This document shows, one piece after another, positions 1 to 11,691 of a DNA stretch of 64,000 nt. The position numbers and the translations under genes are program-made. The stretch is taken from IMG/VR virus record IMGVR_UViG_3300028590_000012; one strand, written 5' to 3'. Source of the stretch: an uncultured virus (IMG/VR IMGVR_UViG_3300028590_000012). Taxonomy: Duplodnaviria > Heunggongvirae > Uroviricota > Caudoviricetes. The notes beneath the pieces were generated by a model that saw nothing but the letters and a program-made list of their open reading frames with translations, made no database searches and was not told where the DNA came from. The first letter of the stretch is position 1; the number at the start of each line of letters is the position of its first letter.

Positions 1-3000
1 AATGAAGTCCAGCGCTTTCTCGGTCAAGAAGTCCGGGAACCCATACTCGTACTTGAAGGCTTCTCCAAGACGGCGATATACGTCATCCACGCTTTCTGCG
101 GGCTTGGAAAGAACGTCTGCAAGGATTGAGTCGAGGGATTGTCCTGCTTCCTGCGTGATCACCTCTTTGAATTTGTCCTGTCCCTCCAGGCCTTTTTCAA
201 ACTGTGAGGCAATTTCCTTATTGGATTCTGGAATGGCGCGTTCCGCCATCGGCGCGACAAGATCTTGATCCAAGTTACCGTTCTTTGCTTGTTCGACAAT
301 ACTTACAAGCTTATCGCGGGTTTCCTCCCAGTTCTTGAAGAACGGACGAACGTCTCGGGACATGCTGGACGCTCTGCCTGTAAGGGCGTTGAGGAAATCC
401 ATCGCGGCATCAACCAGCCGCTCAAACAGGGGCTTGTCTTTCTGCCAGAGTCTCCTCCAGAACTTCCCGTCGTTGAAGTGTGCGCCGATGAAGTCTTCCG
501 TAAATTCATCTGCGGCTTGGAATTCCGAGTAGCCCTTGTTGTTGATCAGGTTGTTCTTGTAGGCCGTCCAGTCGGTGGCGTTATCCAAAACGAACTGCTG
601 GAGATCTTCGTACAGAGCTTTGTTCTTGGCCTTCAGGCTGTGGCCAAACTCGTGGCCGGTAAGGAACATCAATGGGTAGTTTCCATTGACATTGATGTAG
701 ATGGCGTCGGGATTACTCTTTAGGAAGAGAGCAGACGGTGCGGTTGACGGAAGATCCGTAAGGAATACTATACGCTTCCCGAAAATCTTCTCCAGTTCTC
801 CTGCAAATGCGTTGAAGTTTACGTCGTTGCCCAGCACTCGTCTTGCTGCTCTGGCGTCAGTTGGTTCCAGAGTTCGAGTGCTCGCGCCGGATCGGAAGGC
901 CTCAAGGTCGGCATCCCGTCCCGCCTCCGCAGTTCGTCCATTATCTGCCGAAATCCATTTTGACATGGAGCTAACCGCGTCATTCTGCGCAAGAGCTTCG
1001 ATCTCGCCACTGTCCGCAGCGAAGACTCCTTCATCAACGAGTCCTTCATCGGAATAAATCGGTCTGCCTTGCTCAAGGTCTTGGGCTTCAAGCGTGCCGA
1101 CCGTGCTTTCTTGGAATGCTTGTTCATCTTCTGGAGTTGTTTGTCGTGTCGTTTCTGCTGCGGTCTGTTCCTCCACGGGGGCGAGGATTTCGGAAATGTC
1201 GTTGATGCCACGGAGGAATAGGGCCTTCTCCACGTTGGTTCGGTAGCGGGTGATGGTCTTTTTCACCCCTTCTTGGGAAAGCCCCACTTCTGCTCCGATC
1301 TCGCGCAACGATTGTCCACTGGCGTATCCACGGAGAATGGTCCTATCTCTCTCGCTGGCCTGCGACATGACGGCTTGCAGAGCCTCTCGCGCCACTCCTT
1401 GCATCCTCTTGCGGTCATTTTCTGCGATGGTGGTTTCCTGTGGAAAGGGCGCTGTGGAGACGATGGTTTCCACGTCATCATCCTCCATCACAGGTCGGTC
1501 TGGGGTGACGTACTTACTGCGGATCTTCCTGCTCTTGGCGTAGTCCCGCATGTGGTTGCGGATGATACCTGCCGCATACTGAGGGAATGAAACGCCCTTG
1601 GCAGCATCGTAGGACTTGGCTGCTTTGACCAAGCCTTGCACCGCTTCACTCTGGCGGTCATTGAAATCGGTTCCAGGAATGTTGCTGAACTGACGGGCAA
1701 ATAGGGCCGTCAGCCCAAGAGGCTTGAAGGTGTCTGTTTCTTGGAGAAGCTGCTGCTGTTCGGGAGTGAGCGGAGTAACATCAATCCCCGCGTCCGACTC
1801 AAGTTCCTGCGTGGCCTCTACCAGCGCCTTGGCCTCTGCGGCCTCACTGGCGTTGGGGTTGGTGATGGTTTCCGACCAGCTACCGCTTTCCGCCATTGCG
1901 GCGACAGCGCTTTCACCAGAATCAAGGGCGGATTCCGAAACCACCAATAGTGTTGTATCTTTACCGCCACCGTAAAAGTATTCGTTCAGCCTAACCGAGT
2001 CATATCCAGCGTTGGCAATTCTGGCCGACAGTTCCTGTAAATTATTAGCCAGGGATTGTGCAAGCTCTTCGTCCTTCGCAAATTTAATGCCTGTTGTATT
2101 TACTCCTCCACTCTCTAACAAACGCTTGAGTTCTTGCGAACCAGAATCAAAGTCTGCCGATACCTCAGTTAAGTCTAAAGTGTTTTTTGGAAACACTCTA
2201 ATCTCTTTTGGATTAGCTCCAAAATTGGATGCGTATTCTGGATTTGATGCTGCGTAGAAGGGAACCTTCGGAATCCCATCATAAGAGTTTCTCGTGGCGT
2301 GGTATAGCGTCTCCCCACTCCGCATAGGAGCCGATCCTCCTCTGGACTCAATAATCGGAGCACCAGCCAAGGTGAACGCATTCTCAACGGCGCTGTGTAG
2401 AAGGGATGTCTGTGCCGCAGGCTTGTTGAACAATAGCCTTGCGATGGCGTTGACGAAACGCTGCCACAGGGTTTGCTTCTGTCCGGGGCGCACTCGGTCC
2501 AGCTTCTTGCGGAAGCCTGCGTTGGAGAATGCCTCGGCAACCATTTCTTCCACGTTGCTGATACCGTATTCCCCTTGAAACTCTGGCATGGCAGAGATTT
2601 CCTTGTGAATGGCTACAAGTTCGTCGTACGCCTTGCGGGCTTCTCCGGTCAGTTTCTCGGGATTGCGGATCTGGTCGAGGGTTACCCGATGGCTGGCCTC
2701 ATGGAGGATGGATAGTGCCGCTCCGGGGTTCCTGCGGGCGAGGTTGATGAGAGTTGCGGGGGTTTCTCCTCCGACATAGAGCGCACTCCAGGAACTATCA
2801 GGACGGTTGACGGCCTGAATATCCATGGCCGTTCCGAGCGCTAGGAGCCTCTTGGAAAGCGTTTTCGCCCAGTCAGGGGTAGATTTGCTGTCCGCGATCT
2901 TTTGGAGAACCTTGGTGGCTGTGGCATCCTCGTCAAAGACTCCCAGTTCGGAGAGTTCGTTGAACAGCGGAATGTTAACGCTAGGCAATGGCGCAGCGTT

Positions 3001-5184
3001 CGTGAGCGGGACGCCTTGGTAGGGGTCCGGTTCTGTGGAGATTTCCGTAGCGGCTTCTGCTTTGGCTTGCTGCTTGGCCGGAAGCTTCTTTATCGCCTTT
3101 TTGACCCGCTCGCTCTTGGGCTTTACGTAATGAGCAATGTCGTTCCGCTCAATTACTTGTGTCTCTCCTGTGCGGTCATTTACAACCTCGAAAGAATGCT
3201 CGTCGTTAGCACGTTCCGCCTCTGTTTGCGGGAGAGCGCGAGTAATGGTGAACGTCTGAGGATTTCCACGCAACTGGACACGCTGGGGCTGCTGTTGGGC
3301 TGGTTCCGTAGCTCCTGTACTTGCAGTAGGTGCTTGCTGAACTCCTTCTGGGACATTTGGCTGATCTTGCTGGATCGGAGGGTTTTCATTGACCGCTACC
3401 TCTTGGCCTTGCGCTTCACTGAGTACGCTATCGCTAATGCTTGCTTGCGCGGTTTCCCGGCCCTCAATTCCGTCTTCAGGTTGGACTTGAAGGCCTTCTT
3501 GCTGGGTGACTGTTTCAATGGCATTGGGTTCTCCTTCTGGTTGTGCTGTCGTGATCTGCGCTTGGGCAAGTGCAACATCCGCTAGAGCAGGTGTCTCTCC
3601 TGCCGCAAGGGCTTCTTCCACCCTTGCTCTGGCGGCTTGTTGCTCAGATTCGACAGGCAAATCTGCTTGTGTATCACCGACAGGGGTTTCGTTAACGACA
3701 ACGGGTTCAGAAAGGGGTTGCTCCGTCCCGGCTTCCGTTTCCACCGCTGGAGTTACGGCTGGGGTTGGAGCAAATTGGGTTTCCTCTGTAGCCTGAACAT
3801 GGGCTTCTAGAGAGGGCTTGGAAAGGTCTGCTGCTGGAGTTGAAAGCAGTTCGTCGATGACGCTGGCAGATTTGCGCTGGGACTCGATCCTGTTGTCAGT
3901 GACTTCTGCGGCTGCGATTTCCACCACGGCCTCGGCTGCCGCTGGAGAATCATTAGCCTCAAGGTTCTTAGCCTGGACTGCGGCTTGTTGAACAATAGCT
4001 GTTTCTTTGGCTGATGCCGCGCCAGCCACTTGTGCAACGGTAGTTCCACCTAATCCCACTGCTGCTCCAACTAGGACGGAACTTGCAACATCCTTTGTCA
4101 GGGGTCGCTCTGGGTCGTACTTCTCAAGTTGCTTGGCAACCGTGTTGAGCCAAAGTTGCTGTGTTCCCTCAGTTCCACCTTCCTGAGCGCCTTGCTTGGC
4201 AATTTCTGAAAGGGCTTGTCTGATCGTGGACTTTCCCTCCATGGCGCGAAGGGTTTTCCCCACGAGAAGCTTATCTGCCAGGACTTCCAGGGGGCCGGAT
4301 ACCGCCACGTATTCCTTGGCTGCTGCGTGGGCTTTTTCTGGAGTTGCTCCCGACTGGATCGCATCATCGTAACCCTCTTGGTAGAGCTGCCCAATAGCCA
4401 TCGCTGGGCCAAGACCCGGCACCGCATAGGCCGGGATATTGGCGAGTTGACCGATACCTTGGGCAGCTTGTCCTAGGAATGTGCTTTGAAATTCATCGCT
4501 GACTGGGAGAGCTTGGCGCGCACCTTCCCGCATTCCAGAGGCTTCATTGGCGGCTGTTTCGAGAAATCCTCCAACGTCTCTCCGTGCCTGCTGTGCTTCC
4601 GGGGTTACCGCAAGGTTCTCAATGCTCCCTGGAGTGGTGAGACGGGTAAGGTCTGCTTCCGCCGCAGCCTTATCCAGACCCACCTGGGCCTTCTGGGATT
4701 CGGCATCCTGTGGGGACATCCGACCCTCTTTCACCATGTCATCAATCATGGTGATGGTTTGGTCGAATCCTGCGACCTTCTCCTTGGCTCGGGCCAGCGG
4801 ATCAGCTTCAGAGATTTCCTGACCCAATCCACGGTAGATGCCTTCTGAGGACATCAACACGCCCTCGGACGTAGCTCCCCTGGCGATGGCTGGAAAAACA
4901 TTCCCTATACTGTCTTCAAGGCTGTTGGCAACATTCTCTAAGAAGTTGGTTTCCGGGAGCTTGGATGCGGCCTGAATCTCCTTCAGTTTTGCCGCTGTGG
5001 AGGTATGGAACTGGTCCTGAATGGCGGCATCCTGCCATGCCCCTACAGAGTCTCCATAGGAACGGGTAGCTTTGGCCCAATTCCCAAGCGTGATGGCCTT
5101 GTCCTCGGGGGATAGCTTCTGAAACTCCTCGTTTGTTTCAACCTCCTGCCAAGACGGCGGGGCAAGGATTTCCTCGGTGGGCAT
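1..5184 (-). CDS. Giant virion/internal (ejection-type) protein, >1700 aa, C-terminus beyond the window edge
   Basis: ATG at 5184 (MPTEEILAPPSWQEVETNEEFQKLSPEDK...). The frame was spot-checked as open and no ORF in this frame appears in the track, consistent with running off the edge. Ala/Glu/Gln-rich; follows other structural genes. Confidence 0.75.
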   Translation of the reverse strand, partial: MPTEEILAPPSWQEVETNEEFQKLSPEDKAITLGNWAKATRSYGDSVGAWQDAAIQDQFHTSTAAKLKEIQAASKLPETNFLENVANSLEDSIGNVFPAIARGATSEGVLMSSEGIYRGLGQEISEADPLARAKEKVAGFDQTITMIDDMVKEGRMSPQDAESQKAQVGLDKAAAEADLTRLTTPGSIENLAVTPEAQQARRDVGGFLETAANEASGMREGARQALPVSDEFQSTFLGQAAQGIGQLANIPAYAVPGLGPAMAIGQLYQEGYDDAIQSGATPEKAHAAAKEYVAVSGPLEVLADKLLVGKTLRAMEGKSTIRQALSEIAKQGAQEGGTEGTQQLWLNTVAKQLEKYDPERPLTKDVASSVLVGAAVGLGGTTVAQVAGAASAKETAIVQQAAVQAKNLEANDSPAAAEAVVEIAAAEVTDNRIESQRKSASVIDELLSTPAADLSKPSLEAHVQATEETQFAPTPAVTPAVETEAGTEQPLSEPVVVNETPVGDTQADLPVESEQQAARARVEEALAAGETPALADVALAQAQITTAQPEGEPNAIETVTQQEGLQVQPEDGIEGRETAQASISDSVLSEAQGQEVAVNENPPIQQDQPNVPEGVQQAPTASTGATEPAQQQPQRVQLRGNPQTFTITRALPQTEAERANDEHSFEVVNDRTGETQVIERNDIAHYVKPKSERVKKAIKKLPAKQQAKAEAATEISTEPDPYQGVPLTNAAPLPSVNIPLFNELSELGVFDEDATATKVLQKIADSKSTPDWAKTLSKRLLALGTAMDIQAVNRPDSSWSALYVGGETPATLINLARRNPGAALSILHEASHRVTLDQIRNPEKLTGEARKAYDELVAIHKEISAMPEFQGEYGISNVEEMVAEAFSNAGFRKKLDRVRPGQKQTLWQRFVNAIARLLFNKPAAQTSLLHSAVENAFTLAGAPIIESRGGSAPMRSGETLYHATRNSYDGIPKVPFYAASNPEYASNFGANPKEIRVFPKNTLDLTEVSADFDSGSQELKRLLESGGVNTTGIKFAKDEELAQSLANNLQELSARIANAGYDSVRLNEYFYGGGKDTTLLVVSESALDSGESAVAAMAESGSWSETITNPNASEAAEAKALVEATQELESDAGIDVTPLTPEQQQLLQETDTFKPLGLTALFARQFSNIPGTDFNDRQSEAVQGLVKAAKSYDAAKGVSFPQYAAGIIRNHMRDYAKSRKIRSKYVTPDRPVMEDDDVETIVSTAPFPQETTIAENDRKRMQGVAREALQAVMSQASERDRTILRGYASGQSLREIGAEVGLSQEGVKKTITRYRTNVEKALFLRGINDISEILAPVEEQTAAETTRQTTPEDEQAFQESTVGTLEAQDLEQGRPIYSDEGLVDEGVFAADSGEIEALAQNDAVSSMSKWISADNGRTAEAGRDADLEAFRSGASTRTLEPTDARAARRVLGNDVNFNAFAGELEKIFGKRIVFLTDLPSTAPSALFLKSNPDAIYINVNGNYPLMFLTGHEFGHSLKAKNKALYEDLQQFVLDNATDWTAYKNNLINNKGYSEFQAADEFTEDFIGAHFNDGKFWRRLWQKDKPLFERLVDAAMDFLNALTGRASSMSRDVRPFFKNWEETRDKLVSIVEQAKNGNLDQDLVAPMAERAIPESNKEIASQFEKGLEGQDKFKEVITQEAGQSLDSILADVLSKPAESVDDVYRRLGEAFKYEYGFPDFLTEKALDFI
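3396..3524 (-). CDS. Small basic protein nested in another frame of the giant ORF
   Basis: MPLKQSPSKKAFKSNLKTELRAGKPRKQALAIAYSVKRKAKR resembles a common small phage protein type (MPLKK...GKPQKQAIAIA). Confidence 0.6.
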   Translation of the reverse strand: MPLKQSPSKKAFKSNLKTELRAGKPRKQALAIAYSVKRKAKR

Positions 5185-7585: not shown

Positions 7586-7866
7586 GAACCTGAAACACGG
7601 AGAACGGAGAAGCCTTTGAACCCGCAGATCGAGATCGAGGTGGAACCTCGCCCCGTCATTCCCGTAAGGGAGGGCATAATCACGTCATCCTACGCATTAC
7701 CACATGACCGAGTGCGCAGAGTGCTACTGGACGTGATCCAGTATAGAATCTGGTATGTTCGGAAACTTCAAGCGACCCACAACCGCGTTTCAGTTCTTAG
7801 CTCCCGTGTAACATCGGGGGCACTATGCCCGTGTTCTTCTACAATTTCCCCTCCCGGTTTCAGTCG
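7586..7866 (-). ncRNA. Candidate structured ncRNA downstream of the HNH gene
   Basis: Long-range helix GAACTGAAACGCGG/CCGTGTTTCAGGTTC encloses ATCACGTC/GACGTGAT, CTGCGCA/TGCGTAG and CGAGG/CCTCG; G-U pairs favour the minus strand. Confidence 0.4.
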
Positions 7867-7879
7867 TATGAAAATAACT

Positions 7880-8458
7880 CTACGACAAGAAATGATTCCA
7901 GTCCTGAACTCCATGCTTGTTCCTGATGAACAAGCTGACAGGAAGCTCCTTTGGGGCTTGTGGAGCACGGGAAAGCTTCAGTCCTGCTTCCTGTGGAAGC
8001 CTGTCAGCTTTCCTGCTATTCACCTTTTTATCAGCAAGAACGCAATTCTCCCAGGATGTAGCTCCTCCCTTTGATCGAGGAAGTACGTGGTCAATATTCG
8101 CTTCTTCGGGAGATAGTTTTCTTCCAGTGTATTGACAGATTCCATTGTCCCTTTCCCAAATTGTCTTGGATGAAAGCTTTGGTCGCTTCTTTGGAACCTT
8201 TGCGTAGTTGCACAGAACAATCACAGTGGGAACCCGAATCGCCATTTTTGAAGTATGTACTGCACAGTCAGTTTCCCTTACTGGCAGCTTCATCCAGTCA
8301 GTCCACTTTACGGCCTGCATGTTCTGACCATCTATGTCCAGTGCTGTGGCAACGTCCGTTGCGAGCATACAGATTGCTTCTGCAACAGTTTTGGTGTGGA
8401 TGGGCTGCCAAGATCGGTTCAGGACAAGAACCGTTGGCTTGTGGAGGATGTCTGTCAT
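7880..8458 (-). CDS. HNH endonuclease (McrA-like, tRNA-array-associated type)
   Basis: VLVLNRSWQP...IWERDNGICQYTG...IDHVLPRSKGGATSWENCV...NSRKADR. Confidence 0.9.
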   Translation of the reverse strand: MTDILHKPTVLVLNRSWQPIHTKTVAEAICMLATDVATALDIDGQNMQAVKWTDWMKLPVRETDCAVHTSKMAIRVPTVIVLCNYAKVPKKRPKLSSKTIWERDNGICQYTGRKLSPEEANIDHVLPRSKGGATSWENCVLADKKVNSRKADRLPQEAGLKLSRAPQAPKELPVSLFIRNKHGVQDWNHFLS

Positions 8459-8491: not shown

Positions 8492-8569
8492 TGGTGGAAG
8501 CGGACGGAGTTGCACCCTCACCTTGCCGGTTAAAAGCCGGATATGCTTGTCTGTTAACACTACGCTTCC
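8492..8569 (-). tRNA. tRNA-Lys(TTT)
   Basis: GGAAGCG/CGCTTCC acceptor, loop CTTTTAA, CCA. Confidence 0.85.
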
Positions 8570-8574
8570 TGAAA

Positions 8575-8650
8575 TGGTCCCTCATCCCGGTAATGCTCCG
8601 GGCACAGTGCTTTTTGAGAACACTCGGTCTGCTATTGCCATCAATGAGGG
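8575..8650 (-). tRNA. tRNA-Leu(CAA), short variable arm
   Basis: CCCTCAT/ATGAGGG, loop CTCAAAA, A73-CCA. Confidence 0.75.
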
Positions 8651-8651
8651 A

Positions 8652-8727
8652 TGGTCCCCATGATTGGTCTTGCACCAACACATTACATCCTTCTCGGGGA
8701 TGCTCCTCTGCTTTGGGATACATAGGG
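8652..8727 (-). tRNA. tRNA-Leu(GAG), short variable arm, C33
   Basis: CCCTATG/CATGGGG, CATCC-CCGAGAA-GGATG, CCA. Confidence 0.75.
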
Positions 8728-8730
8728 AAA

Positions 8731-8806
8731 TGGTACCGCCGACCGGTGCTGCCCCGGCTCGCTCCTCCTTGAAAGGGAGGCAGACATGCTGTTGTCCATC
8801 AGCGGC
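8731..8806 (-). tRNA. tRNA-Glu(TTC)
   Basis: CCTCC-CTTTCAA-GGAGG, CCA. Confidence 0.8.
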
Positions 8807-8812
8807 ATAAAT

Positions 8813-8886
8813 TAGAACCCGAACATGGACTCGCACCATGACTTGTCCTCGTTCAAAGCGAGGGTGACTACTTTGCCGACTCGGGT
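8813..8886 (-). tRNA. tRNA-Gln(TTG), ends CTA rather than CCA
   Basis: CCTCG-CTTTGAA-CGAGG. Confidence 0.75.
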
Positions 8887-8888
8887 AT

Positions 8889-8981
8889 TGGTCCTCCTGC
8901 TAGGTAACGCTCCTAGACTCGGCCCACTTCAAGGACTACTGACGATTATAAGTCGTCCGGTTCTCTTTGAACTACAGGAGG
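8889..8981 (-). tRNA. tRNA-Ile(TAT) with long variable arm
   Basis: CCTCCTG/CAGGAGG (same 5' acceptor strand as Ile-GAT), GACGA-CTTATAA-TCGTC, ~24-nt variable region. Confidence 0.8.
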
Positions 8982-8984
8982 AAA

Positions 8985-9071
8985 TGGCGGATCGCAGAGG
9001 ACTTGCACCCCATGCCCGAAGGCATCATCTGTTTAGCAAACAGCGAAGGCACCTTGGCCCCTATACGATCC
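8985..9071 (-). tRNA. tRNA-Ser(GCT)
   Basis: Loop TTGCTAA, long variable arm, G73-CCA. Confidence 0.85.
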
Positions 9072-9075
9072 AAAA

Positions 9076-9149
9076 TGGCTGGGCTCCGTGGATTCGCACC
9101 ACAACGACCTGTTTCAGAGACAGGCAGGCTACTATTACCTCAGAACCCA
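9076..9149 (-). tRNA. tRNA-Gln(CTG)
   Basis: CCTGT-CTCTGAA-ACAGG, G73-CCA. Confidence 0.8.
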
Positions 9150-9155
9150 ATAAAA

Positions 9156-9228
9156 TTGGATAGGAGTGTGCTATCCGCTACACCAACGAGCCGAAGCCCG
9201 TGTTGGATTCGAACCAACGCTTCTCCAA
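9156..9228 (-). ncRNA. Circularly permuted tRNA mimic (YrlA/Y-RNA-like module)
   Basis: Order is T arm GTTGG-TTCGAAT-CCAAC, acceptor ACGGGC-TTCG-GCTCGT closed by UUCG, D arm GTGT-AGCGGATA-GCAC, open stem GGAG/CTCC. Confidence 0.75.
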
Positions 9229-9230
9229 GA

Positions 9231-9305
9231 TGGAGGGAATCGAGAGACTTGCGCTCTCCTCTCAGGTTTACAAAACCCGTGCATCGCTTTCTATGCTTGA
9301 AACCC
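9231..9305 (-). tRNA. tRNA-Thr(TGT)
   Basis: CGGGT-TTTGTAA-ACCTG, CCA. Confidence 0.8.
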
Positions 9306-9309
9306 AAAA

Positions 9310-9395
9310 TGGCGGTCAGCGGAAGTATCGCGCTCCAAACCCGAAGGTTCCTTCCGTTTTCGAAACGGAGTCCATGCTTCATGGATTCACTAACC
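9310..9395 (-). tRNA. tRNA-Ser(CGA)
   Basis: TCCGT-TTCGAAA-ACGGA, long arm, G73. Confidence 0.8.
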
Positions 9396-9399
9396 AAAA

Positions 9400-9474
9400 T
9401 GGTGGTTCGCCACGGTACTGCCCCGTGTTCTCAAGGTTAAGAGCCAAGTGCATCACTTCGTATGCTTGCGAACC
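9400..9474 (-). tRNA. tRNA-Lys(CTT)
   Basis: GGTTCGC/GCGAACC, loop CTCTTAA, mismatched anticodon stem. Confidence 0.8.
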
Positions 9475-9476
9475 AA

Positions 9477-9563
9477 TGGCGGTTGATGGAGGTATTGCGC
9501 CCCAAGGATTGCTCCTCCACCTGTTTTCCAAACAGGGACAGCCCCTTGACTGTGCCACCAACC
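9477..9563 (-). tRNA. tRNA-Ser(GGA)
   Basis: CCTGT-TTGGAAA-ACAGG, long arm, G73. Confidence 0.8.
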
Positions 9564-9566
9564 AAA

Positions 9567-9792
9567 TTCAGACAATAGCCGCGATTCTGTAACCCTTTCG
9601 GGGTTCATCATTCGACTGACGATTTCTCGCCGGGAGTATTAACTTCCCCGCACCAACCCGCCTTCTCAGGGAAGCACTACCCTCAGGCTGTTTGGCTTGC
9701 TGATACCACGTAGTAAAAACGGACGAATCCTCCTACGGCTGCTTTTCAGTCGCGAACTTCCTCACCATTGCTGGCGCGATGAACTATCTGAA
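9567..9792 (-). ncRNA. rnpB: Minimal bacterial-type RNase P RNA (~226 nt; catalytic domain intact, S-domain largely missing)
   Basis: P1 TTCAGATA/TGTCTGAA; P2 GTTCATC/GATGAAC; P3 CGCCA-GCAA-TGGTG; GAGGAAGTTCGCGAC and ACAGAATCGCGGCTAT (P4); AGCAAG-CC-AAACAG...GGGTTGG-TGC (P15 with GGU); P18 GGCGA-GAAA-TCGTC; P19 CCC-GAAA-GGG. Confidence 0.85.
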
Positions 9793-9793
9793 A

Positions 9794-9869
9794 TGGAGCC
9801 CAAGGTCGGATGTGCGCCGACCATCTCCCGCTTACCGAGCGGGCGCATCGCTATCTATGCTTCATGGGC
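9794..9869 (-). tRNA. tRNA-Thr(GGT), C33
   Basis: CCCGC-TCGGTAA-GCGGG, CCA. Confidence 0.8.
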
Positions 9870-9874
9870 AAAAA

Positions 9875-9948
9875 TGGTCCGTGACCCCAGAGTTGCACTG
9901 GGCCTGCATCTTTCACAGAGATGAATGCTTCTGCTACACTATCCACGG
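9875..9948 (-). tRNA. tRNA-His(GTG), A73, no encoded G-1
   Basis: CATCT-CTGTGAA-AGATG, ACCA end. Confidence 0.8.
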
Positions 9949-9949
9949 A

Positions 9950-10017
9950 TGGAGCCTCATCTGGCATCTCAGCCAGCACGCCTATTTACGAAACAGGACT
10001 AGGATCTTACATGAGGC
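9950..10017 (-). tRNA. tRNA-Thr(CGT), reduced D arm
   Basis: GCCTCAT/ATGAGGC, CCTGT-TTCGTAA-ATAGG, only 68 nt. Confidence 0.65.
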
Positions 10018-10020
10018 AAA

Positions 10021-10099
10021 TGGCGCTCCGAGTAGGACTTGCACCCACAACCACATCGGTTCGAAGCCGAGTATGCAAAAGCTCTTACACCTCCGGAGC
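10021..10099 (-). tRNA. tRNA-Arg(TCG)
   Basis: Loop CTTCGAA, GCTCCGG/TCGGAGC, CCA. Confidence 0.8.
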
Positions 10100-10103
10100 A
10101 AAA

Positions 10104-10177
10104 TGGTGTTCCTGCCGAGATTCGCACTCGGGGCTGTACCTTCGCAGGGTACCGTGATTCTGCTTCACTACAGGAAC
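10104..10177 (-). tRNA. tRNA-Arg(GCG)
   Basis: GTACC-CTGCGAA-GGTAC, GTTCCTG/CAGGAAC, CCA. Confidence 0.85.
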
Positions 10178-10178
10178 A

Positions 10179-10253
10179 TGGTGCCCTACCCCAGTGCTGC
10201 CCTGGGTCATCCGCTTTGGAAGAGCGGCATCATAGCTGGTAGATCAGTAAGGC
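10179..10253 (-). tRNA. tRNA-Gly(TCC), A73
   Basis: CCGCT-CTTCCAA-AGCGG. Confidence 0.8.
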
Positions 10254-10269
10254 TTGTTGAACAATAAAG

Positions 10270-10344
10270 TGGCCGTTGGAATCCGTAACGCTCGGATCTC
10301 TGCGGTTCTTCAGACCGCCGCACATCTGTCTATGCCATCCAACG
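10270..10344 (-). tRNA. tRNA-Phe(GAA), G73
   Basis: GCGGT-CTGAAGA-ACCGC. Confidence 0.8.
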
Positions 10345-10348
10345 AGAA

Positions 10349-10422
10349 TGGTCCTCCGGGGTGGTACTGCCCCACCGTCTTGCGTTTATCAAACGCGGAT
10401 TCTGCTTTTGAACTACAGGAGG
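10349..10422 (-). tRNA. tRNA-Ile(GAT)
   Basis: Loop TTGATAA, CCTCCTG acceptor, CCA. Confidence 0.85.
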
Positions 10423-10423
10423 A

Positions 10424-10497
10424 TGGTGCCCAGCCGAGGAATCTCACCCCGTCTTCAGCTTTGTAAGAGCCGCTCGCTAATGTTACAACAGCCGGGC
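10424..10497 (-). tRNA. tRNA-Val(TAC)
   Basis: CGGCT-CTTACAA-AGCTG. Confidence 0.8.
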
Positions 10498-10500
10498 AAA

Positions 10501-10573
10501 TGGTGGCGGGGGTGGGAGTCGCGCCCACGGAGGCAAGCTTATGAGACTCGCTGGAATACTCATTCTCCCCGAC
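10501..10573 (-). tRNA. tRNA-Met(CAT) (initiator/elongator/Ile2 status unresolved)
   Basis: CGAGT-CTCATAA-GCTTG; fMet-like CGGGG/CCCCG acceptor. Confidence 0.75.
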
Positions 10574-10579
10574 ATAAAA

Positions 10580-10656
10580 TGGTGCCTGTGGCAGGATTTG
10601 CACCCGCAACCTCTGCGTTCTAAGCGCAGCGCCTCTGCTGGTTGGGCTACACAGGC
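10580..10656 (-). tRNA. tRNA-Leu(TAG), short variable arm
   Basis: GCCTGTG/CACAGGC, CTGCG-CTTAGAA-CGCAG, variable loop AGGTT. Confidence 0.85.
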
Positions 10657-10662
10657 ATAAAA

Positions 10663-10737
10663 TGGCGACCTCACCGGGTAACGCTCCCGATATTCCACCT
10701 TGAGAGGGTGGCGTCTCATCTTTTCGACTTTGAGGCC
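10663..10737 (-). tRNA. tRNA-Glu(CTC)
   Basis: CCACC-CTCTCAA-GGTGG. Confidence 0.8.
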
Positions 10738-10738
10738 A

Positions 10739-10805
10739 TGTTCCCAAACGGTAACGCTCCGTTTCATCAGACTTAGGAGGTCCGAGCCCGTCTATTGGTG
10801 GGAAC
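10739..10805 (-). tRNA. tRNA-Arg(CCT), reduced D arm, no encoded CCA
   Basis: GTTCCCA/TGGGAAC, CGGAC-CTCCTAA-GTCTG. Confidence 0.65.
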
Positions 10806-10811
10806 GGAAAG

Positions 10812-10887
10812 TGGCGGTTGAGACGGGTGCTGCCCCCGCTCGGTCCAGCTTGACGGGCTGGCATTGATGCTGTTCAAACTCTCAACC
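10812..10887 (-). tRNA. tRNA-Asp(GTC), C33
   Basis: CCAGC-CCGTCAA-GCTGG, G73. Confidence 0.8.
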
Positions 10888-10888
10888 G

Positions 10889-10974
10889 TGGCGGGTCACT
10901 GAGGTATCGCGCCCCAAGCCTTTCGGCTCCATCCGTTTTCAAGACGGCGACAGGACTTTCCTGTTTAATGACCC
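10889..10974 (-). tRNA. tRNA-Ser(TGA)
   Basis: Loop CTTGAAA, long arm, G73. Confidence 0.8.
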
Positions 10975-10978
10975 AAAA

Positions 10979-11053
10979 TGGCACCAGCACTTGGAGTCGC
11001 ACCAAGCTCGTGCGGTTTAACAGACCGACTGCGCACTCCGCGCATCTACTGGT
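10979..11053 (-). tRNA. tRNA-Asn(GTT)
   Basis: Loop CTGTTAA, G73-CCA. Confidence 0.8.
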
Positions 11054-11054
11054 A

Positions 11055-11121
11055 TATCCCATCACGGTAACGCTCCGTGCCTGAGTCTTTAGAAGAGACT
11101 TGTCCGTCTATCGGATGGGAT
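11055..11121 (-). tRNA. tRNA-Arg(TCT), reduced D arm, no encoded CCA
   Basis: ATCCCAT/ATGGGAT, AGTCT-CTTCTAA-AGACT. Confidence 0.7.
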
Positions 11122-11125
11122 GAAA

Positions 11126-11201
11126 TGGTCGGGCTACTGGGACTCGCACCCAGGATGTTCTGATCCCAAATCAGACGGATTAGCTGCTATCCTACAGCCC
11201 G
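11126..11201 (-). tRNA. tRNA-Pro(TGG)
   Basis: C1-G72, TCTGA-TTTGGGA-TCAGA, A73. Confidence 0.85.
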
Positions 11202-11202
11202 A

Positions 11203-11287
11203 TGGTGTATGGGGTCGGTAACGCTCCGACACAGTGCTAAGACGACGGGTTTACAGTCCGCGAGGCTCACTTTTGCCCAGCCCATAC
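11203..11287 (-). tRNA. tRNA-Tyr(GTA)
   Basis: Loop CTGTAAA, long variable arm, A73. Confidence 0.8.
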
Positions 11288-11288
11288 A

Positions 11289-11366
11289 TGGACTCCGTGG
11301 CGAGATTTCCACTCGCAAACCCTGAATTTTAAGAACAGGAGGTTTGGTAATTACCGTCACACGGAG
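11289..11366 (-). tRNA. tRNA-Leu(TAA), short variable arm, weak anticodon stem
   Basis: CTCCGTG/CACGGAG, loop CTTAAAA. Confidence 0.65.
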
Positions 11367-11380
11367 GTTGATTGTTAAAA

Positions 11381-11456
11381 TGGTGGAGATGAAGAGATTC
11401 GCACTCTCATAATCGCAACTTGCAAGGTTGGAGCATCCTCGTCTAGCCACATCCCC
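11381..11456 (-). tRNA. tRNA-Ala(TGC)
   Basis: G3:U70 pair, loop CTTGCAA. Confidence 0.85.
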
Positions 11457-11466
11457 ATTTTGAAAT

Positions 11467-11542
11467 TGGAGGCCAACCCCAGACTCCCACTGGGTAAATC
11501 GCGCTTTGCAGGCGCACGCTTCGAGTCTTTAGCTTGTTGGCC
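11467..11542 (-). tRNA. tRNA-Cys(GCA)
   Basis: Loop CTGCAAA, U73-CCA. Confidence 0.85.
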
Positions 11543-11543
11543 A

Positions 11544-11615
11544 TGGCAGGTTGCCTCAGTGCCGCCCTGAGCGGGATCGGATTTGGAGTCCAATCTGCAC
11601 GCTGGTGCGCAACCT
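11544..11615 (-). tRNA. tRNA-Trp(CCA)
   Basis: AGGTTGC/GCAACCT, loop CTCCAAA, G73. Confidence 0.8.
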
Positions 11616-11620
11616 ATAAC

Positions 11621-11691
11621 TGCGGTCGGCGGGAATTGCACCCGCATCTCATCGTTGGCAACGACAAATCCTGCTATTGAACGACGACCGC
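11621..11691 (-). tRNA. tRNA-Gly(GCC), A73, no encoded CCA
   Basis: GCGGTCG/CGACCGC, loop TTGCCAA. Confidence 0.85.

Follow-up and report, generated by a model that had tools for sequence, protein, structure and literature searches.

The stretch of DNA analysed here (the window) is 64,000 nucleotides (nt) long and belongs to an uncultured soil phage of the Caudoviricetes (IMG/VR record IMGVR_UViG_3300028590_000012). At positions 9567-9792, on the minus strand and within a cluster of transfer RNA (tRNA) genes, it encodes a 226-nt RNA, counted from P1 to P1, that resembles the RNA of ribonuclease P (RNase P). RNase P RNA is the ribozyme that trims the 5' end of new tRNAs, and in bacteria its specificity domain (S-domain) comprises about 150 nt at the place between the two P5 strands. 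In the window RNA this spacing is 42 nt. The RNA is almost certainly a homologue of RNase P RNA that is kept by selection.

Structure of the window RNA

The helices were written out from the RNase P architecture, and every pair was then checked. The features of the RNA are given below in its 5' to 3' direction, with the evidence in brackets; R1 denotes a covariance model of the phage family described in the next section, and RF00010 the Rfam model of bacterial class A RNase P RNA.

9567..9792, minus strand: the whole miniature RNase P RNA (structure check; R1, 74.2 bits; RF00010, 23.9 bits)
9787..9792, minus strand: P1 5' strand UUCAGA, partner 9567-9572 (structure check; pairing test of the flanks in the family)
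9778..9784, minus strand: P2 5' strand GUUCAUC, partner 9603-9609 (structure check; family covariation)
9763..9776, minus strand: P3 hairpin CGCCA-GCAA-UGGUG, with a GCAA loop (structure check)
9750..9763, minus strand: conserved region I (CR-I) and P4 5' strand, GAGGAAGUUCGCGA, with bulged U9755 (structure check; RF00010 aligns GAGGAAAGUCCGG here)
9746..9749, minus strand: P5 5' strand CUGA, partner 9700-9703 (structure check; family covariation)
9740..9744, minus strand: P6 pseudoknot strand AAGCA, pairing with UGCUU at 9672-9676 in the P17 loop (structure check; family covariation)
9709..9737, minus strand: S-domain stub (structure check; covariation of its stem)
9697..9699, minus strand: J5/15 CAA, part of GCAAG (GCAA invariant and aligned with GCAA of RF00010)
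9652..9696, minus strand: P15 (GCC/GGU, 9694-9696 with 9652-9654), the P16-P17 hairpin (9660-9688) and J16/15 GGGUU (9655-9659) (structure check; covariation of P15, P16 and P17)
9632..9649, minus strand: extra hairpin between P15 and P18, with one mismatch (structure check; relatives with two hairpins at the same place)
9618..9631, minus strand: P18-like hairpin GGCGA-GAAA-UCGUC (structure check; GAAA-capped counterpart in relatives)
9603..9617, minus strand: J18/2 (AGUCGAAU) and P2 3' strand GAUGAAC (RF00010 aligns AGAugAAUG)
9593..9602, minus strand: P19-like hairpin, CCC-CGAA-GGG region, between P2 and CR-V (structure check)
9577..9590, minus strand: CR-V ACAGAA and P4 3' strand, UCGCGGCU (structure check; RF00010 alignment)

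All 15 proposed helices form in the window RNA, with standard pairs throughout except for the one mismatch in the extra hairpin. P4 (9750-9758 with 9577-9584) consists of three base pairs, the bulged U9755 and five further base pairs, all of them standard. The S-domain stub is made up of a P7-like stem (CGUAG/CUACG), an internal loop with conserved GGAG and GU...AC, and a 3-base-pair hairpin. The G, A and C of the stub are unchanged across the 13 seed sequences of the family, and the stub is therefore not a mere linker.

The original prediction, made from the letters of the sequence, had placed here P1, P2, P3, both P4 strands, AGCAAG, a P15 loop with GGU, P18 and P19, with about 50 nt in place of the S-domain. 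Each of these elements is found with standard pairs where it was said to lie, and the near absence of the S-domain is borne out. Its description of a bacterial type A-derived, phage-borne RNA inside a same-strand tRNA array likewise agrees with the structure check, the alignment to RF00010 and the tRNA scans. The P6 pseudoknot and the second hairpin before P18, both present in the window RNA, were not part of it.

With bacterial class A RNase P RNA (rnpB/M1 RNA, RF00010) the window RNA shares P1 to P5, the bulged U of P4 at the same position, GCAA in J5/15, P15-P16-P17 with GGGU, P6 between L17 and the strand after P5, J18/2 AGA..AAUGA, and ACAGAA. It differs in its size (226 nt vs about 350-400 nt), in the replacement of P8-P14 by the 29-nt stub, in its P4 sequence (AAGUUCGCG vs AAAGUCCGG in class A), and in being carried by a phage inside a tRNA array.

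The RF00010 model matches the window at 9560-9795(-) with 23.9 bits (E 5.5e-6), a sub-threshold match seen only in a targeted scan of 241 nt (9560-9800), where the restriction to this segment makes the filters laxer. The alignment spans model positions 1-367, with 154 S-domain positions replaced by 38 nt, and it brings P1-P5, GCAA, P15, CGGGU, AAUG of J18/2 and ACAGAA into register. R1 matches the window at 9627-9789(-) with 74.2 bits (E 1.4e-20).

Two candidates were set aside. A tRNA-like element was considered as the identity of the window RNA and rejected, and a weak R1 match at 7780-7952 of the window (minus strand, 16.8 bits), which overlaps the end of an HNH endonuclease gene and has unpaired P4 strands, was judged to be probably due to chance.

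A family of phage RNAs and its compensatory changes

By exact search, the P4 5' strand is found at no fewer than 119 IMG/VR loci, and at about 29 among the matches listed the P4 3' strand also occurs 121-263 nt downstream. Two-part P4 patterns gave 34 IMG/VR loci with a spacing of 115-145 nt and 15 with a spacing of 146-176 nt. R1 was built from 13 short members (185 positions, 36 pairs; P1, P4 and P6 left out) and matched 40 of 100 sources at E<1e-18, including members with ACAAAA or ACAGGA that the pattern had missed. In the family alignment (A5), the near-universal ACAGAA of CR-V is replaced by ACAAAA in roughly 10 members and by ACAGGA in roughly 6.

The family contains at least 54 distinct core sequences. 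Its sources are IMG/VR phage contigs, two uncultured phages of 642 kilobases (kb; LR756502.1, member at L173:1468-1655) and 735 kb (LR756501.1, member at L174:1490-1698), and the cultured Stenotrophomonas phage DLP6. The DLP6 member (KU682439.2, 105774-106022; L172:2302-2550) lies in an unannotated 258-nt gap of the tRNA array and scores 54.7 bits with RF00010 (E 1e-14) and 97.2 bits with R1. DLP6 and the two huge phages were reached by blastn from one query only, locus L017; blastn of the window region and of the DLP6 RNA against cultured-phage records gave nothing beyond DLP6 itself. Among prokaryotes the two-part pattern occurs once in 185,579 species (one genome each), on a 2.3-kb contig of a metagenome-assembled genome.

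One member is of full length. The 303-nt RNA at L012:1250-1552 (minus strand; also L171) has the identical 15-nt P4 sequence and reaches 178.2 bits with RF00010, above the gathering score. The source is a 177-kb phage record with a completeness rating of 100%, and the RNA may represent an intermediate in the reduction. Nine of the miniature members match the archaeal model RF00373 below threshold (E 5e-11 to 0.012). The best family score with the type T model RF02357 is 18.3 bits (E 8; L001).

Base pairs were counted on 25 of 45 aligned R1 hits and later on 27 distinct, well-aligned sequences. Fourteen members with long insertions after P15, which R1 misaligns, were left out of the counts, and so was the window, because R1 misaligns its 3' third; two MAFFT alignments (A1, A2) were too rough for the purpose. 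In the 27 sequences, 91.2% of the cells at paired positions are paired, vs 69.1% in shuffles, and the covariation score is 0.557 vs 0.165. None of 500 shuffles reaches 0.557, and slid controls give at most 0.109. Compensatory pairs are seen in P2 (6/6), P5 (3/4), the stem of the stub (4/5), P15 (3/3), P16 (3/4) and P17 (5/5). P6, which is not part of the model, is compensatory in all five of its pairs, with 87.7-88.3% of cells paired.

P4 is paired in 99.1% of cells in the 27 sequences and includes three compensatory pairs. The P4 of the 642-kb phage differs from the family P4 and is fully compensated. Otherwise P4 is invariant in the family set, because most members were collected by the exact P4 pattern. 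GCAA and GGT show no variation or next to none.

P1 was dropped from the alignment and tested separately. When its flanks are paired with their own partners, the mean duplex energy is -13.9 kcal/mol, vs -8.4 kcal/mol for mismatched partners, and duplexes at -9 kcal/mol or lower are formed by 45 of 54 own but 393 of 1063 mismatched pairings.

A close relative of the window (X3) is a 73-kb contig from another soil run that is roughly 93% identical. There are 8 differences in the 226-nt RNA and about 30 in the adjacent 70-nt spacer. One change is compensatory, the closing pair of P3 (A9772-U9767) having become G-C while the loop changed from GCAA to GAAA, and one P2 pair has changed from U-A to the wobble-compatible U.G.

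The window RNA has the complete catalytic-domain architecture of type A RNase P RNA, and compensatory changes in a large phage family preserve this fold. In our judgement, the window RNA probably acts as a phage ribozyme for tRNA 5' processing, derived from the bacterial type A RNA with near loss of the S-domain.

Several observations weigh against this reading. A scan of the whole window with Rfam at gathering scores returned tRNAs only, and a scan of 551 nt returned no RNase P family at E<=10. Neither the RF00010 gathering score (100 bits) nor that of any other Rfam RNase P model is reached by the window. With R1, a single alignment spans just the first two-thirds of the window RNA, counted from its 5' end; the insertion-bearing 3' part gave a match of its own at 17.8 bits. 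The P4 sequence is GAAGUUC in the window vs GAAAGUC in the RF00010 consensus, and the three compensatory pairs of P4 all come from the single sequence of the 642-kb phage. One P16 pair is broken in X3 (U9685 to A). The single-sequence fold, computed without pseudoknots, is no better than those of shuffles (z -1.36). Of the specificity domain P7-P14, the parts in contact with the tRNA elbow (modules CR-II and CR-III) have been lost from the window RNA. Finally, PF00825 (RnpA, the protein subunit) is found in none of the 65 open reading frames (ORFs) of the window, as the original prediction had noted for rnpA, and is lacking in 48 of 49 family records. The Rfam check that the prediction had called for therefore came out in part only: RF00010 gave the sub-threshold match in the 241-nt scan but nothing on 551 nt and nothing at the gathering score, and the type T model RF02357 gave no match to the window in either the 551-nt or the 241-nt scan.

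The low Rfam scores, together with the label 'provirus' that IMG/VR gives to some of the family records, might be expected if the RNA were a functionless remnant of a captured host rnpB in decay, or cellular DNA misbinned as viral. Such an origin is highly improbable in view of the 54 distinct sequences with their strong compensatory covariation, of the greater conservation of the RNA than of its flank in the comparison with X3, and of the single occurrence of the pattern among the 185,579 species genomes. The RNA is moreover present in the cultured lytic phage DLP6 and in phage genomes that are complete and have direct terminal repeats, such repeats being found in four family records (172, 462, 519 and 173 kb).

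An RNA that is conserved need not be an enzyme. A look-alike of RNase P RNA could titrate or redirect the host RnpA, or another factor that binds RNase P, in favour of phage tRNAs or of host shutdown. P2-P3, J18/2 and P15, the regions that bind RnpA in bacteria, are conserved, and most family records have no rnpA of their own, both of which would suit such a decoy. However, conservation or covariation extends to positions with no protein-binding role (the bulged U of P4, ACAGAA, J5/15, GGU, P6 and P15-P17), a pattern that fits a working active site, and one of the phages has an RnpA of its own. A decoy role is accordingly considered improbable, and a catalytic role for the RNA is preferred in what follows.

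The tRNA array and its elbows

The neighbouring features of the RNA are as follows.

8495..11691, minus strand: same-strand tRNA array with G55/A18 elbow variants (Rfam, ARAGORN, T-arm counts)
9476..9563, minus strand: tRNA-like gene with a long variable arm and encoded CCA (cloverleaf-like minimum-free-energy fold)
9875..9948, minus strand: tRNA-His(gtg), 82 nt upstream of the ribozyme (tRNA scan)

Between P1 of the ribozyme and the 5' end of the tRNA-like gene that follows it there are 3 nt, and the gene was missed by both ARAGORN and Rfam. The family loci examined lie, as in the window, in or beside same-strand tRNA arrays. Sigma-70 promoters and terminators in the array are not above shuffles (4 vs 2.9 expected, and 5 vs 4.2, respectively).

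Nearly all tRNAs of the window have an altered elbow. Among 21 T-arm-like hairpins of the array, the loop is UGCRA in 11, AGC(G/A)UUA in 7 and UUCG in 3, so that G stands at loop position 2 in 18 of the 21. All nine tRNAs detected by ARAGORN have AG in the D-loop where GG (G18 G19) is normal. By comparison with the canonical Leu tRNAs of locus L073, the changes are placed at G18 to A and U55 to G. The AGC(G/A)UUA loops lie at 8586-8602, 8900-8916, 10281-10297, 10674-10690, 10747-10763, 11063-11079 and 11214-11230; in them U54-A58 is apparently swapped to A54-U58, again with G55. Several of the altered-elbow tRNAs were missed by Rfam and several by ARAGORN.

The same elbows are found at one other locus, L041:18-3012, where 7 of 9 tRNAs have UGC, one CGC and one AGC, and where the miniature RNA belongs to the same subgroup as that of the window. 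The two phages have no detectable terminase in common (the L041 record is 76% complete).

The elbows were scanned with ARAGORN in 44 sources (the window and 43 family loci), of which 31 yielded tRNAs and 13 had none in the stretch. G55 T-loops occur only in the window and L041, the other 29 of the 31 having canonical GG/UUC elbows. Examples are L073, which belongs to the window's own subgroup and has GG in 18 of 18 tRNAs, and L012 (4/4).

These counts bear on the reason for the reduction. Within RNase P it is the S-domain that recognises the elbow, and this domain could have been lost specifically for the processing of A18/G55 tRNAs that the host RNase P cannot handle, the two forming an orthogonal pair. 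Such an idea is in keeping with the altered T-loops and D-loops of the window array and with the recurrence of the same elbows beside a miniature RNA of the same subgroup in L041. The tRNA elbow has indeed been named as a recognition site of RNase P (PMC4810234). However, the elbows are canonical in 29 of the 31 sources, so that the loss of the S-domain is not an adaptation to altered elbows; G19-C56, on the outer face of the elbow, is apparently kept, and the stub has no feature that varies with the type of elbow. We regard this explanation as unlikely. From L073 and the other loci with canonical elbows it follows that the reduction came before the elbow change and did not depend on it. Of the prediction that the ribozyme matures elbow-variant tRNAs, the G55/A18 variants in the window are thus real, but their causal link to the loss of the S-domain is not supported. 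At most, the loss of the S-domain made the altered elbows possible.

A more speculative version, rather doubtful though worth stating, starts from this last point. In the window phage and, independently, in that of L041 the elbow has been rebuilt from G18-Psi55 (Psi, pseudouridine) to A18-G55, and in some tRNAs from U54-A58 to A54-U58. Such tRNA sets might be hidden from elbow-reading enzymes or defences of the host, the elbow change would have been possible only through a phage RNase P that no longer reads the elbow, and the whole would then be a natural orthogonal system of tRNA maturation. Apart from this conjecture, the A18/G55 sets beside the ribozyme in two phages pose a separate puzzle concerning the readers of the elbow during infection.

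The 3' end of the tRNAs also varies among the phages. CCA is encoded in 7 of 9 tRNAs of the window, in 18 of 18 of L073 and in 9 of 9 of L041, but in none of those of L001 (0/16), L007 (0/12) and L162 (0/12). GGGUU is kept in CCA-encoding and non-CCA-encoding family phages alike.

Mode of action, known systems and genome context

If the window RNA is the ribozyme proposed above, it would be co-transcribed with the phage pre-tRNAs of the array. Its 3' end would be freed by an RNase P cut at the tRNA-like gene 3 nt downstream, and its 5' side trimmed by the 3'-end processing of tRNA. The miniature RNA would then supply the catalytic subunit, removing 5' leaders from pre-tRNAs that the phage itself encodes. 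Pairing would be expected between GGU of J16/15 and the encoded 3'-CCA, J5/15 and P4 would form the active site, and the catalytic domain (C-domain) would recognise the acceptor stem and CCA, as in constructs that consist of this domain only. The benefit to the phage may lie in extra, or elbow-independent, 5' processing for a burst of about 20-40 phage tRNAs.

The protein partner would most likely be the host RnpA. A homologue of RnpA is encoded by one of the 49 family records, or one of the 12 rated at least 90% complete. This record (G002, 476 kb) carries a miniature RNA together with a 99-amino-acid RnpA homologue (50 bits; L170:1498-1797, minus strand; G002:C1:440379-440669). The protein gene adjoins ClpP, and of 26 ORFs in that region 20 match no Pfam family; neither rpmH nor yidC is nearby. 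On account of these surroundings, it looks like a phage-encoded RNase P protein.

Among archaea, type T is already known as a natural RNase P RNA about 200 nt long, and it works with several archaeal proteins. The phage RNAs resemble this RNA, described from the Thermoproteaceae (PMC3579882; RF02357), in that the catalytic domain is kept while the S-domain is nearly gone, but the likeness is one of form only. Unlike type T, the phage RNAs keep the bacterial P15-P17 and P6 and the GGU that presumably binds CCA, and the likeness is therefore convergent. Type A RNase P RNAs that consist of the C-domain only are reported still to cleave their substrates, with reduced efficiency (PMC5839562), and a natural enzyme poor in S-domain is therefore plausible. 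The engineered RNAs are laboratory deletions, whereas the phage RNAs were reduced in nature, still have a conserved stub and are encoded by viral genes.

What is new is the bacterial type A RNase P RNA in a miniaturised, viral form. To our knowledge, RNase P RNA has been regarded as a strictly cellular and organellar gene. No description of a phage-encoded RNase P RNA was found in full-text literature searches, and the main text of the paper on DLP6 (PMC5349666) nowhere contains 'RNase P' or 'ribozyme'. With a widespread viral family, the translation-related genes carried by phages would come to include a ribozyme. The family also provides dozens of natural 'experiments' that show to what size a bacterial-type RNase P can be reduced while its catalytic core and a small conserved stub are kept. 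The miniature RNAs account for gaps that standard annotation has left blank in phage tRNA clusters. Since one member resides in the cultured phage DLP6, the question is directly testable at the bench.

As regards the remainder of the window, its genes include those for a terminase large subunit, a DnaB-like helicase, several HNH endonucleases, an exonuclease, replication initiator-like proteins and DNA methyltransferases, most other ORFs being without a family. The DnaB has no cultured relative above 27% identity, and the terminase has no match in four further records (G003, G024, G004 and G005). At positions 1-5184, on the minus strand, an open frame of more than 1728 amino acids runs off the window and contains, at residues about 1163-1320, a segment resembling sigma-70 region 2 or a sigma factor.

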